Source: a virus
DNA: 64,000 nucleotides
Direction: 5' to 3' (one strand)
IMG/VR virus record: IMGVR_UViG_3300045988_117831
The notes under the pieces were generated by a model, which was not told where the DNA came from, did no database searches, and was given only the letters and a program-made list of their open reading frames with translations. The translations under genes were made by a program, and so were the position numbers. Below, piece by piece: positions 27,386 to 32,827 of the stretch (the first letter of the stretch is position 1; each line of letters starts with the position of its first letter).

Positions 27386-28819
27386 TTACTCCCCCTTCAG
27401 GTAGCTGTCCAGCTCGGCGCACTGCGGAGCAGAACCGGCCGAATCCTGGGCTTTCGATTGACGGCTGGCCGCGCCGCGCGCGGCTTCGACACCTTTCAGG
27501 TACATGTCGAGCGCCAGTGCTTCCTGGCCCTTCGCGCAGCTGATATTCAGCTTCTTCACGCCGTAAACAGCGACTTCAGCCGAGTCCATAGCTCGGTGAT
27601 CGAACGCACCAACCACGGAGCTAAGACGCTTGTAGAGGCGATCTTTAGCAGCAATGTCGCGATAGAGACCGCGAATTGCAGCATCTTGCGCGTTCTTCTG
27701 TGCCATTTCAGGAAGTTCCTCGCTGTTATCCTTGCCCTCACCACCATCGTCGCTGGCGGTTTGCGCGCCGCTGAGGCTGCTCTGCTCTTCCAAGCCCTCG
27801 ACGACATCTTGACCTTCGCCATGCTCTTCGTCCGCCCCTTCGGCTACCGTGCCCTCCAGTCGAGCCAGAATGGCCTTGACTTGAGAGATCAGTTCGGCGA
27901 CTTCGCCTTCACCGGACATTTCGGATGCGGCACCTTCTTGATGCTCCGGCTCGACGGCGGCCACGGCCGGATCGACAACGGAAGGCTCCTCTTCCTGCTC
28001 TTCGTCATCCTTCTGAGCACCTTCCAGAGTCGGATGCTCGGTCAGGTGCTCGCTGTCGGTCGGTTCGGCCGGAGCTGCGCCTTCCTGATGCTCCGGCTCC
28101 TGCTCTTCTTCGCCCAGGAACTTCTGGACAGACGCAGATAGCTTCGGCCACAGGGCGCGCAACTCTTCGACCGCCGAGTCAGCAGCTTGCCCTACGCGCT
28201 GGACAGGGGGCTTCCGCTTGGCTTTCTTGAGACTCATTTCATTACCCTCATCGGATGGTCTGAAATCAAAACTGAGATGGTCAAAACACAGACCATCCAA
28301 TACTCTGGCCCCCGGCACACGACCCTCTTTTACCAGGGCAATGTGGTTGCCGCGCATCTTGTCCTGGACGACTTCATAAGGTGTTCCGTTCCAGATGCCG
28401 GGTTGCTCAGTGTAGCGGCAACTATAGCCTAGGGACAGGTCTTCTTTGCCCCTTTCCAGCTGATTCTGCATGTTGCGGGAATAGATGCGGATATCGCCGC
28501 GTGCCCATGGGGCTTCGTAGTAAGCGTTGGATGTGATGATGCCCTCCACCCCTTTGTCTTCGGGGGCCACGCTATCGTCATCATCGTCGAATCCCGACAG
28601 CATCTCATGCTCGTCGATCAACGGGAGATTCTTCAGAGATTCGATGTACTCCGGATCGCTGACGGCAGACTCCGGGCGATATACGTTGACAATCCGCGTC
28701 GGATCGCCCGGAAGACCGAGTTGACCAGCAGAATATTGGAAAACGCCATAAGAGCTGATCGGGCAGCCCTCTATGGTCATATATCCATTTTCGTCAATTT
28801 TTCTTTTCGACTTTGCCAT
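27386..28819 (-). CDS. prohead protease/scaffold-like protein (DUF2213-like N-terminal domain plus acidic coiled-coil C-terminal half)
   Basis: 477 aa. N-terminal ~190 aa (...GNHIALVKEGR...) resembles a head-maturation domain. The Glu-rich helical C-terminal half looks like a scaffold. Confidence 0.5.
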   Translation of the reverse strand: MAKSKRKIDENGYMTIEGCPISSYGVFQYSAGQLGLPGDPTRIVNVYRPESAVSDPEYIESLKNLPLIDEHEMLSGFDDDDDSVAPEDKGVEGIITSNAYYEAPWARGDIRIYSRNMQNQLERGKEDLSLGYSCRYTEQPGIWNGTPYEVVQDKMRGNHIALVKEGRVPGARVLDGLCFDHLSFDFRPSDEGNEMSLKKAKRKPPVQRVGQAADSAVEELRALWPKLSASVQKFLGEEEQEPEHQEGAAPAEPTDSEHLTEHPTLEGAQKDDEEQEEEPSVVDPAVAAVEPEHQEGAASEMSGEGEVAELISQVKAILARLEGTVAEGADEEHGEGQDVVEGLEEQSSLSGAQTASDDGGEGKDNSEELPEMAQKNAQDAAIRGLYRDIAAKDRLYKRLSSVVGAFDHRAMDSAEVAVYGVKKLNISCAKGQEALALDMYLKGVEAARGAASRQSKAQDSAGSAPQCAELDSYLKGE

Positions 28820-29693: not shown

Positions 29694-30533
29694 TCAAATG
29701 ATCGGTATCTTTCTGCACCTACAGTTAATCGCCCATCCTGGCGGCCCCTGGTCTGCTTTCGGACCCTCCCAAAGTCTGGGGTCATTCAGCTTGAACCTCT
29801 TCCCATCTTTCTCCAGGTGGGTGTGGCGAGGAGTCTTGCCGGCAGAAGAGTGTAGCCACTCGAACTCCTCGACTCCATTTTCCGCCATTCTCTCATCGCT
29901 CAGAGAACTGTAAAGCTTGCTTGTTTGATCTCTTGCGATGAGTTCGATTCGATCTTCAGAAAACTTCCCGACTTTGCGAAGTGCGTTAGTTATGCCGGAA
30001 GTTCCTTGCTCTTCCGGATTCGGGGAAGTCAGAGACAGCATTACTGATGTGTAAATCTTCTCGTGGACTTCCTCTTGGATCTTGGTGATGAGAGTATGAT
30101 TGTAAGTGGTTGCGGCCTCCAGGGTGTTCCTGACGCTCTCATTATACGCAGCTCGTGGCTGATCGACGCCGGCCACCGACAAGCTGTGAAGGGTCGCGGC
30201 AGTGGCGGCTTCTTCGGTCCGGTTGACGAACTCCGGGGCGATCTTGGCCGCGAAACCTTCAAAAATGCGGCTCCATCGCTGCTGTAGGCTTCGAAGGGTC
30301 ATCTTGAACAGGACGTTAACGGATTCGTCTCTGGCGAAGAACCGTTCGGCCGCAGGCTGGGACAGCGCCTTCTCAATCTCGTTTCGATAGTCGGAGATCA
30401 TGAGCTTGGACATATCCTTCATCTGCTTTCGATACCAGGCCTCGATTCCTGCCGATGGAATTATGGGCTTCCCTCTTCCGACTGGAAGAGGTGCCCGGCG
30501 CTCGCGCTTTTTGGAGGCCTTGAATGCCATCAC
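29694..30533 (-). CDS. minor head protein, Mu gpF / SPP1 gp7 family
   Basis: 279 aa. C-terminal ...HTHLEKDGKRF...PPGWAINCRCRKIP matches the conserved end of the Phage_Mu_F domain. Overlaps the portal stop. Confidence 0.7.
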   Translation of the reverse strand: MMAFKASKKRERRAPLPVGRGKPIIPSAGIEAWYRKQMKDMSKLMISDYRNEIEKALSQPAAERFFARDESVNVLFKMTLRSLQQRWSRIFEGFAAKIAPEFVNRTEEAATAATLHSLSVAGVDQPRAAYNESVRNTLEAATTYNHTLITKIQEEVHEKIYTSVMLSLTSPNPEEQGTSGITNALRKVGKFSEDRIELIARDQTSKLYSSLSDERMAENGVEEFEWLHSSAGKTPRHTHLEKDGKRFKLNDPRLWEGPKADQGPPGWAINCRCRKIPII

Positions 30534-32827
30534 TCGCCCCCGAATGGTTTGGTGGTGTCGCCGTTCGCCAGCCAGCGACGGAAAGCGGGCAGGTCAACTT
30601 CATGGATGGAGCCGAGACCATCCCAGCCCGGACGGAAGCAGGACAGATATCCGGACTTCGCATCGTTGATGTTGTTGAAGCCGAGCATACACTTGTGCTC
30701 GTCAAACTGACCTTCCTTGTTCACTTGGTTGACGACGAAGACCCGTTTGGATCCCAGATTCGGACCGACGAAGCAATCGACTTCATCCCCATCAGCGCCT
30801 TTCGTTCCCTTGATGAACCCGTAGTGGTGTTTCATCTGAACTCGCCAACTCCCATCCTTTCCTTGCCGAATGCTTCCGCGCGGATTTTCGATCAAGGTGG
30901 TTATTCCATTCACCTTGATTCTCTGGAGTTCCGAATGATCACGAGGCCCGATGATGCGGTTGGACGAAAACACCGAAGGCTCCATGCCAGACACGCCAGG
31001 TTGGGACGTGCGCTTTAAGCCAGGCGCATCATTGTGCTCTATGTCTACGCCGTCCGGCGCCTTAATGTCGTCCAGGTCTTGGAGCTTCGACAAAAGATCG
31101 ACCAACAAGTTCCGCAGCTCGGCCTTGGGGTCCGGTCGCGACGGCGGTTCAGCGGCCTCGCTGGCCCCTTCCTCGGCCGCTTTCGCGAGAGGCTTAGTCC
31201 CGCGTGGAGCGGCGGGAACCGGGCCGCCTGCGCCCTCTACGGCGCCCGCCTGGGCTTCGGCTCGCTCGGCTTCGCCTTTCGCCTTTGTCGACTGTGCACC
31301 GGCCTTCTCGAATTCGGCCAGGTTTTCCGGAGACATGCCCGGTTCGGTTTCTGCCTGATCGTCGGTGAGTCGGTTGTAGCCGGAACGCGGATCGTCGCGC
31401 AGACGCTCGCGAACTTCATCCGGAGACACAACGCCAGAGTTGATGTAGATTTCGTCGGTAGCGGCTTTCTTGTTGTTCAATTCGGCTTGTTGCTGGCTGG
31501 ACGTGGAGTCTACAGGATTCCAGACGATTTCCAGCTGCACATCGATTTCTTCCGACTTCGCCAGAAGCAAATAGTGGCGTTCAAGAAGTGGGTCGAATAT
31601 GTGCTCTTGAATGGACTCCAGTTCTTCGTGATAAGAAATCGTTTCGTGCTCACCAGTGGCATTGAATCCTTTTGGAGAAGTGCCGAGGAGCTTCGTGGCT
31701 GGAGTCTTGGCGATGGCCGCGACCAGCTGATATTGGTTCATGATGATGCTGTCGAAGTCGGCCAGGTTCGTGTCGAACTGCTCCATGCCTTCGTCAATTC
31801 CCAGAACTTTCACGCCGTGGTTATCACGGTTGGCGATCCAGAACGCCAGGCGAGCGTTGAAGGCCTCTTCGTTCGCGATGGCCTTCTCCACGTCAACGTG
31901 GATGGTGCTGGTTCGCTTCGACATGGCAAGCAGCGGGGCTTCGTTCGCCGTCCGTTCCGCTGCATACACGCGCTCATAGATTCTCTGGGTGAGCGGGATA
32001 CCGCCGAAGATGTATGTAGGCTTCAGGATATCTGGCGGCTGCGGTCCACGAACCACCACTAGGTGGCTGCGGTGATATTTTTTGCCGCTGATAATCCAGA
32101 AATCCGGCTCATAGAAATGTTCGGAAGACGGATCTGCCGTCGAGCCAGCAGTGAGCTGCGGCATTGCCCAGTATGGATCGATCTGGGAGATTCCCTTGTA
32201 GGAGCCGGGCGTGATTCCATCCGGATTGAACGGCTTTTCGTAGTAGTCCGGATCGTCAGACTCCACGACGAACAGCGCGATACGAACGCCGAAAACGTTC
32301 TTGAATCTGTTGAGTTCGACAAGGTTGTCTTTGACGCGAAACTCCATGTCGCGCCGGGCGATCAGCGCGCTTTGTTCATCGGATAGCTTCCTGCCGTCCG
32401 ATTTGAGTTCCCATCCGTTCCGTGCTGCGTCTTCCCCAGACATGGAACAAGCTTTGTCCACCAACCAGTGCTGGGAAATGATTGCGCAAGCTTGGTATCC
32501 GATAAACCCTTGGGAATTGTACCAGTCCTGCAACATAGTCGGGACGACATAGGGATTCTGGCCGCCCGCAGCAGCCTTCGCGGCCGGAGTTGGTCCATCA
32601 CCATACGCACTATCCATCGCTACAGATAGGCCCGGCTCCAGGAAATCTTTCACACTACGAATGACCGGGGTTTTCTCCGGCTCGACGTTCCAGCCGCGAA
32701 TCCTTCCCAGCTTGATCATGGGGTCGAGCGGATCGTGTTGAGGGATTTGTGCGACTTTCTCCGGCGCCGATTCCGAACAGGCAGCATTATCCTTTTTGCG
32801 CCCGAATATCCAGGAAAGTTTAAACAT
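30530..32827 (-). CDS. portal protein with C-terminal inorganic-pyrophosphatase-like domain
   Basis: 765 aa. The N-terminal ~500 aa is portal-like. An Ala/Glu-rich linker follows. The C-terminal ~165 aa carries HHYGFIKGTKGADGDEVDCFVGPN, resembling the family I PPase active-site region (YGFxxxTxxxDGDPxDVLV). Confidence 0.7.
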   Translation of the reverse strand: MFKLSWIFGRKKDNAACSESAPEKVAQIPQHDPLDPMIKLGRIRGWNVEPEKTPVIRSVKDFLEPGLSVAMDSAYGDGPTPAAKAAAGGQNPYVVPTMLQDWYNSQGFIGYQACAIISQHWLVDKACSMSGEDAARNGWELKSDGRKLSDEQSALIARRDMEFRVKDNLVELNRFKNVFGVRIALFVVESDDPDYYEKPFNPDGITPGSYKGISQIDPYWAMPQLTAGSTADPSSEHFYEPDFWIISGKKYHRSHLVVVRGPQPPDILKPTYIFGGIPLTQRIYERVYAAERTANEAPLLAMSKRTSTIHVDVEKAIANEEAFNARLAFWIANRDNHGVKVLGIDEGMEQFDTNLADFDSIIMNQYQLVAAIAKTPATKLLGTSPKGFNATGEHETISYHEELESIQEHIFDPLLERHYLLLAKSEEIDVQLEIVWNPVDSTSSQQQAELNNKKAATDEIYINSGVVSPDEVRERLRDDPRSGYNRLTDDQAETEPGMSPENLAEFEKAGAQSTKAKGEAERAEAQAGAVEGAGGPVPAAPRGTKPLAKAAEEGASEAAEPPSRPDPKAELRNLLVDLLSKLQDLDDIKAPDGVDIEHNDAPGLKRTSQPGVSGMEPSVFSSNRIIGPRDHSELQRIKVNGITTLIENPRGSIRQGKDGSWRVQMKHHYGFIKGTKGADGDEVDCFVGPNLGSKRVFVVNQVNKEGQFDEHKCMLGFNNINDAKSGYLSCFRPGWDGLGSIHEVDLPAFRRWLANGDTTKPFGGE

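Follow-up and report, generated by a model that had tools for sequence, protein, structure and literature searches.

What does a phage portal protein carry beyond its portal fold? The question is raised by a 64,000-nucleotide (nt) stretch of viral DNA, IMG/VR record IMGVR_UViG_3300045988_117831 (hereafter the window), which belongs to a Pbunavirus, a PB1-like myophage of Pseudomonas aeruginosa, and encodes a portal protein of 765 amino acids (aa). A sequence-only reading of this DNA had divided the protein into a portal region, a low-complexity linker and a C-terminal part that parallels family I inorganic pyrophosphatases (PPases). Our analysis upholds this three-part layout, with Pfam Phage_portal_3 (PF06381) matching aa 111-459 (E=4.2e-99) and Pfam 'InPase' (PF18823) matching aa 635-753 on either side of a hypervariable, disordered spacer, and identifies the folded C-terminal domain as a remote, trimmed homologue of family I PPases. 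The gene and its parts are:

30530-32827, minus strand: complete portal::InPase gene, which runs from an ATG through 765 uninterrupted codons to the stop codon
31244-32548, minus strand: portal core and C-terminal barrel (aa 94-528), the part resolved by cryo-electron microscopy (cryo-EM) in near-identical portals
30929-31243, minus strand: flexible, hypervariable spacer (aa 529-633), rich in Ala, Pro, Gly and Glu
30533-30928, minus strand: InPase domain (aa 634-765, 132 aa), a trimmed family I pyrophosphatase fold
30773-30793, minus strand: DGDEVDC (aa 679-685), in which D679, D681 and D684 correspond to D65, D67 and D70 of E. coli Ppa

The portal ends in a trimmed family I pyrophosphatase fold

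The PF18823 match (E=3e-43) spans profile positions 12-134 of 135 and scores 147.4 bits, where the cut-off is 26.8. The C-terminal part had been put at about 165 aa, and the folded domain proves shorter, at about 132 aa. Within it, the DGDEVDC motif had been placed exactly, and no other sequence in a six-frame translation of the window fits the PROSITE signature of PPases, D-[SGDN]-D-[PE]-[LIVMF]-D-[LIVMGAC]. An AlphaFold2 (AF2) model of aa 634-765, built on 36 diverse homologues, reaches a mean predicted local distance difference test score (pLDDT) of 96.4 and a predicted TM-score (pTM) of 0.90, and its OB-fold core has the strand and helix order of family I PPases. When this model was compared with the Protein Data Bank (PDB) using Foldseek, the top 50 matches were all family I inorganic PPases at a probability of about 1, as the sequence-only reading would have it, with a best E-value of 4e-4 and TM-scores of only 0.45-0.50. 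A search of PDB sequences with the InPase profile likewise returned, past the self-match, almost only PPases, at borderline E-values of 0.04-1 and aligned on IE.P.G...YG(F/Y)I..T.G.DGD..D. HH comparison with E. coli Ppa, using a sequence verified as identical to PDB 4um4_A, gave 90-94% probability and was confident over the Y55-D70 segment only; the PPase profile built from E. coli Ppa is shallow, with 120 listed homologues that are all at least 82% identical and an effective number of sequences (Neff) of 1.7.

The domain departs from E. coli Ppa chiefly by what it has lost. The two share the OB-fold core, the DxDxxD signature and equivalents of E20 and Y55, but E. coli Ppa is about 175 aa long against about 132 aa for InPase, and its E20-Y55 segment is 13 aa longer. 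The β-hairpin between the first core strands is absent from InPase, in which 22 residues separate E647 from Y669, against 35 between E20 and Y55; the corresponding segment of the AF2 model holds just two 3-residue strands, and the Mycobacterium tuberculosis PPase shows a 10-residue insertion relative to the InPase profile in a HMMER alignment. Similarly, the equivalents of K104 and Y141 are linked by about 15 aa, as against 37 aa in E. coli Ppa. The bacterial enzyme is moreover a free hexamer, whereas InPase in the window is a tethered domain of a structural protein.

The active site of E. coli Ppa comprises E20, K29, E31, R43, Y51, Y55, D65, D67, D70, D97, D102, K104, Y141 and K142. Alignment supports the equivalence of E20 with E647, of Y55 with Y669 and of D65/D67/D70 with D679/D681/D684. 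By secondary-structure order and spacing, R654 would correspond to K29, N703 to D97, G706 to G100 and, as probable equivalents, E710 or D709 to D102, K712 to K104 and Y727 to Y141. HH pairing of the C-terminal half flipped between 'FDEHK~YDHIK' and 'FDEHK~FEHYK' at zero confidence, and neither pairing was used. Across 153 family sequences, E647, R654, Y669, G670, D684, E710, K712 and A723 are invariant and D709, Y727, W661, Q701, W735 and W752 are at least 95% conserved, and the window protein has every one of them. The acidic triad is kept almost throughout (D679 in 152 of the 153 sequences, D681 in 145 and D684 in all), and E647, R654, Y669, D679, D681, D684, D709, E710, K712 and Y727 are invariant in the 8 portal fusions that we aligned. 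The predicted metal-binding and general-base residues (E647, D679, D681, D684, D709/E710, K712, Y669, Y727 and R654) are thus retained in the window protein. One further position is variable:

30719-30721, minus strand: aa 703, the putative D97 equivalent, three residues before the conserved G706

Of the 153 sequences, 64 have Asn at this position, 51 have Asp and 11 have Lys.

A constrained domain on a fast-evolving tether

We next compare how the parts of the gene evolve. Ratios of nonsynonymous to synonymous substitution rates (dN/dS), calculated by the Nei-Gojobori method between the window and phage LBL3 or Nessie, are 0.007 for InPase (47-48 synonymous and 2 non-synonymous differences), 0.022 for the portal core and 0.17-0.19 for the spacer. 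Within the gene, constraint is strongest on the InPase domain, stronger even than on the portal core. Identity to the window protein across the 8 portal fusions is 59-71% in the portal core with 0-3 gap positions and 48-62% in the InPase domain with no gaps, whereas in the spacer it falls to 19-30% with many indels. This contrast in conservation indicates that the appendage consists of a globular domain, rigidly conserved, held on a flexible tether that evolves fast. An exhaustive HMMER search with the domain found 11,319 cluster representatives at E<=1e-3 and 9,420 at E<=1e-10, superseding a word-indexed homologue search that had returned 8 proteins only. The profile match, these 11,319 representatives, the fold match and a dN/dS of 0.007 together place the InPase assignment beyond chance.

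In an AF2 model of aa 470-765 the barrel helix falls at aa ~500-526, and most of the spacer stays at pLDDT below 50, with one modest helix at aa ~567-586. One stretch of the spacer stands out in the alignment of the 8 fusions:

30971-31015, minus strand: conserved motif within the spacer (aa 605-619), KRTSQPGVSGMEPSV

In the window the motif reads KRTSQPG...EPSV and lies about 15-30 aa before the InPase domain; its relatives have RTVKPG, RTVKPS, RSVQPS or RTVMPG, followed by PSV. Speculatively, such a motif is a candidate protease-cleavage or docking site.

A separate observation concerns the history of the gene. The ortholog of phage Epa7 (NC_050146.1, 37253-39550) has an InPase domain nearly identical to that of the window (3 synonymous differences, dS 0.035), whereas its portal core (dS 0.79) and linker (dS 0.47) are highly diverged. 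This contrast points to a recombination mosaic with a breakpoint near the junction of linker and InPase domain.

A genuine and previously recognised fusion

Could the fusion be an artefact of assembly or annotation, with a missed stop or frameshift between portal and enzyme? The gene, 2,298 nt long, shares 99.9% identity with ORF17 of Pseudomonas phage KPP12, and nucleotide matches were found in 302 phage records, 291 of which have a full-length, uninterrupted open reading frame (ORF). LBL3, Nessie and Epa7 keep the frame intact although their nucleotide identity is about 88-90%. The protein matches PHROG 4660 end to end, and a near-identical counterpart, Pa193 'gp19 Portal', is deposited as a 765-aa chain (PDB 9b41). 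With an ORF uninterrupted in 291 phage records and maintained despite ~12% nucleotide divergence, a deposited chain and orthologues in three other genera, we rejected the artefact, whose probability is practically nil; the fusion is genuine, as the sequence-only reading had supposed.

The orthologous genes occur in Bcepfunavirus, Wifcevirus and Carpasinavirus, in addition to Pbunavirus. They are those of BcepF1 (Burkholderia, 862 aa), ECML-117 (Escherichia, 791 aa) and FoX7 (Xanthomonas, 839 aa), which are homologous fusions in related phages of the kind that the sequence-only reading had proposed to look for, and in all three a MuF-like gene comes next after portal::InPase. Portal-InPase fusions are also present in the metagenomic cluster representatives P0010, P0016 and P0133. 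The BcepF1 protein, BcepF1.124 (YP_001039808.1), shares with the window protein its order of portal, variable linker and InPase, its synteny (TerL ... portal::InPase, MuF, ... protease) and an InPase domain of the same hairpin-less clade that is 62% identical and conserves all catalytic candidates. It differs in genus and host, in its length of 862 aa, in a longer linker, in an extra tail of ~55 aa after the domain and in having Asp where the window protein has Asn703.

The fusion is not new. The sequence-only reading knew of no described PPase tethered to a portal, but BcepF1.124 was cited explicitly as a portal fusion in the section 'The InPase domain' of Iyer, Burroughs, Anand, de Souza and Aravind (J Bacteriol 2017, PMC5512222), and the domain is annotated in Pfam and UniProt. 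The portal-InPase fusion is thus already known as a computational observation and the domain is curated as PF18823. That study assigned the InPase domain to the type I, OB-fold PPases and described the versions in polyvalent proteins as a monophyletic group without the β-hairpin insert that all crystallised PPases have. It found the clade mainly in (pro)phage proteins that are likely to be packaged in virions, and proposed their injection, with roles in processing an infection-induced nucleotide-like substrate or in clearing inhibitory pyrophosphate (PPi) for early replication or transcription. Polyvalent proteins were defined there as proteins of 2-15 domains from phages or conjugative elements that are packaged and delivered with DNA, often with a processing peptidase domain, and portal fusions were treated beside them as related, simpler architectures (PMC5512222). 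The window protein has two domains, a virion association and no intrinsic peptidase domain.

A literature search for portal-pyrophosphatase biochemistry or for the use of PF18823 in phage work returned nothing relevant; the papers on Pakpunavirus P7-1 and Banzai contain no discussion of the InPase domain, and the word 'pyrophosphatase' occurs zero times in the Pa193 and E217 cryo-EM papers, which do not mention the homology. NCBIfam has no model for the domain and yields only a sub-threshold HI1409-family portal match. Annotation of the orthologues is inconsistent among the ~70 listed of ~300 Pbunavirus records, with 'minor head protein', 'minor capsid protein', 'putative structural protein' and 'hypothetical protein' all in use; the RefSeq note for the Epa7 orthologue even lists 'NUDIX hydrolase'. 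Neither the portal name nor the pyrophosphatase domain appears in the annotation of any of these ~70 records.

The InPase domain recurs in virion and putative effector proteins

Distribution of the domain extends well beyond portals, and InPase occurs in many proteins without a portal part. Among the best 152 InPase homologues, 86 exceed 1,000 aa, the longest having 6,650 aa, and are of the polyvalent type, and the domain is internal in 104. In isolated phages, a tblastn search placed InPase in 471 records, about 295 of them Pbunavirus and 174 from other groups at less than 60% identity, the latter including phages of Vibrio, Escherichia, Serratia, Nodularia, Xanthomonas, Burkholderia and Cellulophaga. 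Structure comparison with BFVD gave TM-scores of 0.83-0.93 to 23 viral proteins, including 'Portal protein [Serratia phage MTx]', and several of the matches are labelled by UniProt 'Inorganic pyrophosphatase domain-containing protein' or 'Large polyvalent protein associated domain'. The PHROG matches include 'DarB-like antirestriction' and 'virion structural protein' families.

Three architectures illustrate the company that the domain keeps. The metagenomic protein P0024 (1,191 aa) joins a portal and InPase to a C-terminal ADP-ribosyltransferase exotoxin domain (PF03496, E=3e-17); its portal bears two tandem enzyme cargos, an arrangement reminiscent of T4 Alt. In P0154 (473 aa, also metagenomic), InPase is inserted at aa ~99-231 of a MuF-family head protein. 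As P0154 is a homologue of the product of the gene downstream of the portal in the window, the same cargo evidently moves between two adjacent head genes. Xanthomonas phage Rb1 (PQ569993.1, 4890-8555) encodes a 1,221-aa 'internal head protein' with an N-terminal InPase. The Rb1 gene is flanked by genes for DarA-N ('defense against restriction A') and for an M12B metallopeptidase, and the locus looks like a Dar-like capsid-internal anti-defence cluster.

Position in the virion and neighbouring head genes

The portals of Pa193 (PDB 9b41) and E217 (PDB 8FVH), both named gp19, are essentially the same 765-aa protein as that of the window, and near-identical as they are they place its parts in the particle. 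Both were solved as 12-mers, with residues 94-528 modelled in Pa193 and 97-528 in E217, and in both the last modelled element is the C-terminal helical barrel, which points into the head interior and is reported to be DNA-dependent in E217. Residues 529-765 have no discernible density in the map of either phage. The first 93 portal residues are missing from the Pa193 LC-MS data (liquid chromatography coupled to mass spectrometry), where nothing is said of a missing C-terminus, and the authors of that study suspect possible N-terminal cleavage of the portal in maturation. The InPase domain comes after the C-terminal barrel, and as this barrel extends into the head, the domain is located in the head interior; because the portal is a dodecamer, each virion is built with twelve copies by the portal channel.

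Two neighbouring genes bear on what may happen to these copies:

29694-30533, minus strand: MuF-like (SPP1 gp7-type) head protein, the downstream gene (PF04233, E=9e-11; PHROG 324 'head morphogenesis')
27386-28819, minus strand: prohead protease-scaffold gene, 477 aa (N-terminal DUF2213, E=1e-33; PHROG 'head maturation protease')

The portal stop and the GTG start of the MuF-like gene share the 4 nt GTGA (30530-30533, minus strand), an overlap suggestive of translational coupling between the genes. MuF proteins are believed to bind the portal and to be carried into the host at infection. The protease-scaffold gene lies 1.7 kb downstream of the portal gene. In its Pa193 ortholog, gp24, residues 286-326 were found bound inside the capsid and interpreted as scaffolding protein that persists at the five-fold vertices. 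The product of 27386-28819 looks like a protease-scaffold fusion, and its protease is a candidate enzyme for releasing the portal appendage, a cut in the portal that we infer.

A probable packaged enzyme and its alternatives

Taken with these results, the role that we lean towards, as probable rather than secure, is that of a virion-packaged enzyme: InPase would be pre-loaded cargo that becomes an early-infection effector after proteolytic release from the portal. The C-terminus of the portal continues past the intracapsid barrel as a disordered tether of ~105 residues ending in InPase, a putative Mg2+-dependent phosphoanhydride hydrolase acting on PPi or on a nucleotide-type pyrophosphate. 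Hydrolase activity is predicted because the presumed metal ligands and general base are invariant or nearly so across the family. A destination in the next host is suggested by the occurrence of InPase in ADP-ribosyltransferase, MuF, Dar-type and internal head proteins, and by a next gene of the MuF/SPP1-gp7 type that the GTGA overlap suggests is translationally coupled. Delivery would require cleavage, since by our own arithmetic, at 3.6 Å per residue, the ~105 tether residues span at most ~380 Å and the tail is about 1,300-1,500 Å long (Pa193 and E217 papers). InPase would most likely be cut from the portal by the prohead protease; that the cut falls at the spacer motif, aa 605-619, is a guess. 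The freed domain would exit through the portal and tail channel along with the DNA and, once in the host, would either clear PPi that inhibits the opening rounds of transcription and replication or break down a host signal derived from a nucleotide. The sequence-only reading had offered an ejected or internal enzyme as one possibility, and this suggestion agrees with the published hypothesis and with our reading. By analogy, InPase resembles T4 Alt, the T4 internal proteins, the P1 Dar proteins and the MuF-toxin fusions, in which an enzyme is preloaded in the head for the onset of infection, and Iyer et al. drew the comparison with Alt and MuF for this domain (PMC5512222). Cargo of the T4 Alt or MuF type is brought in by a capsid-targeting peptide or by portal binding, whereas InPase in the window is covalently fused to the portal and so present in 12 copies.

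Several observations weigh against a delivered pyrophosphatase of the classical kind. The classical PPase profile PF00719 stays under its threshold of 23.5 bits: the whole protein reaches 15.0 bits and the C-terminal fragment 17.3 bits, with the alignment confined to aa 663-687. The sequence-only reading had tied its case to a significant profile hit to family I PPases; with PF00719 there is literally none (15-17 against 23.5 bits), and the homology stands instead through the dedicated PF18823 profile and the fold. That reading had also looked to the metal- and PPi-binding residues, which are matched at E20, Y55 and D65/D67/D70, but not at R43 and Y51, as the segment of E. coli Ppa that bears these two has no counterpart in the InPase domain. 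K142 and E31 have no clear equivalents, and equivalences beyond the E20 and Y55-D70 segments follow element order rather than superposed coordinates. The putative D97 equivalent is Asn703 in the window phage and Asp in 6 of the 7 other portal fusions; an Asn here could go with a change in metal stoichiometry or in substrate. The missing counterparts of R43, Y51 and possibly K142 and E31, together with Asn703, mean that the substrate may not be PPi. Our literature search found no enzymatic assay for any member of the InPase clade, and the supplements of the E217 paper contain no portal peptides.

A more specific version of the cargo reading, which we put forward as speculation and think unlikely, would make InPase a counter-defence enzyme. 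Its 12 copies would be released by the prohead protease at RT..P...PSV and co-ejected, and would destroy a pyrophosphate-containing host signal or nucleotide (an alarmone, an immune second messenger or a precursor of one) before phage gene expression, with the loss of the R43/Y51 hairpin marking an altered substrate.

Would the enzyme need to leave the portal at all? An active InPase that stays tethered, and works in the producer cell late in infection or within the procapsid or capsid, is a possibility that we take seriously while doubting it. Such an enzyme might clear PPi or polyphosphate, or govern the chemistry of divalent metals and phosphate near the portal-side end of the DNA. InPase is after all covalently joined to a protein that stays part of the particle, its cleavage from that protein is a prediction, the Pa193 LC-MS report, which notes the loss of the N-terminal 93 residues and says nothing of a missing C-terminus, is compatible with a full-length C-terminus, and strong purifying selection fits any enzymatic role. 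Yet a late cytoplasmic function would need no fusion to the portal and a DNA-filled head offers no obvious substrate, and elsewhere InPase travels with host-directed effectors, among them the toxin domain of P0024 and polyvalent, DarA/DarB-type and internal-head proteins. The position at the top of the portal channel, beyond a DNA-dependent barrel, might instead suit a catalytically inert structural module of pyrophosphatase descent that serves as a plug, a holder of the DNA end or a headful sensor, a role with which the lack of R43, Y51 and K142 counterparts and the Asn at the D97 equivalent in the window phage would also agree. It is improbable all the same, given an acidic triad, general-base Asp, Lys and Tyr that are invariant or nearly so in 153 highly diverse sequences of unrelated architectures, and given the many InPase proteins that have no portal whatever. 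The sequence-only reading had also raised a hydrolase of PPi or nucleoside triphosphates beside the DNA-packaging motor, for which physical attachment to the portal is the sole support. The terminase docks on the portal's external clip, and the products of packaging ATPases are ADP and phosphate, not PPi, whereas the appendage lies beyond the C-terminal barrel on the head-interior side, which makes the proposal topologically unlikely; InPase is, besides, equally common in proteins unrelated to packaging, and we consider a role at the motor very improbable.

Meaning for PB1-like phages

As a sequence observation, the portal-InPase fusion is not a discovery; the value of the present analysis is in linking an invisible part of the portal to a constrained predicted enzyme. 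PB1-like phages (E217, Pa193, KPP12 and ~300 sequenced relatives) are staples of phage-therapy cocktails against Pseudomonas and have near-complete structural atlases, in which ~30% of the portal (residues 529-765) is unseen in the cryo-EM maps and undiscussed; that portion is now tied to a published prediction. If InPase is indeed an injected effector, portal fusions would provide a clean model, of fixed stoichiometry, for virion-delivered enzymes.

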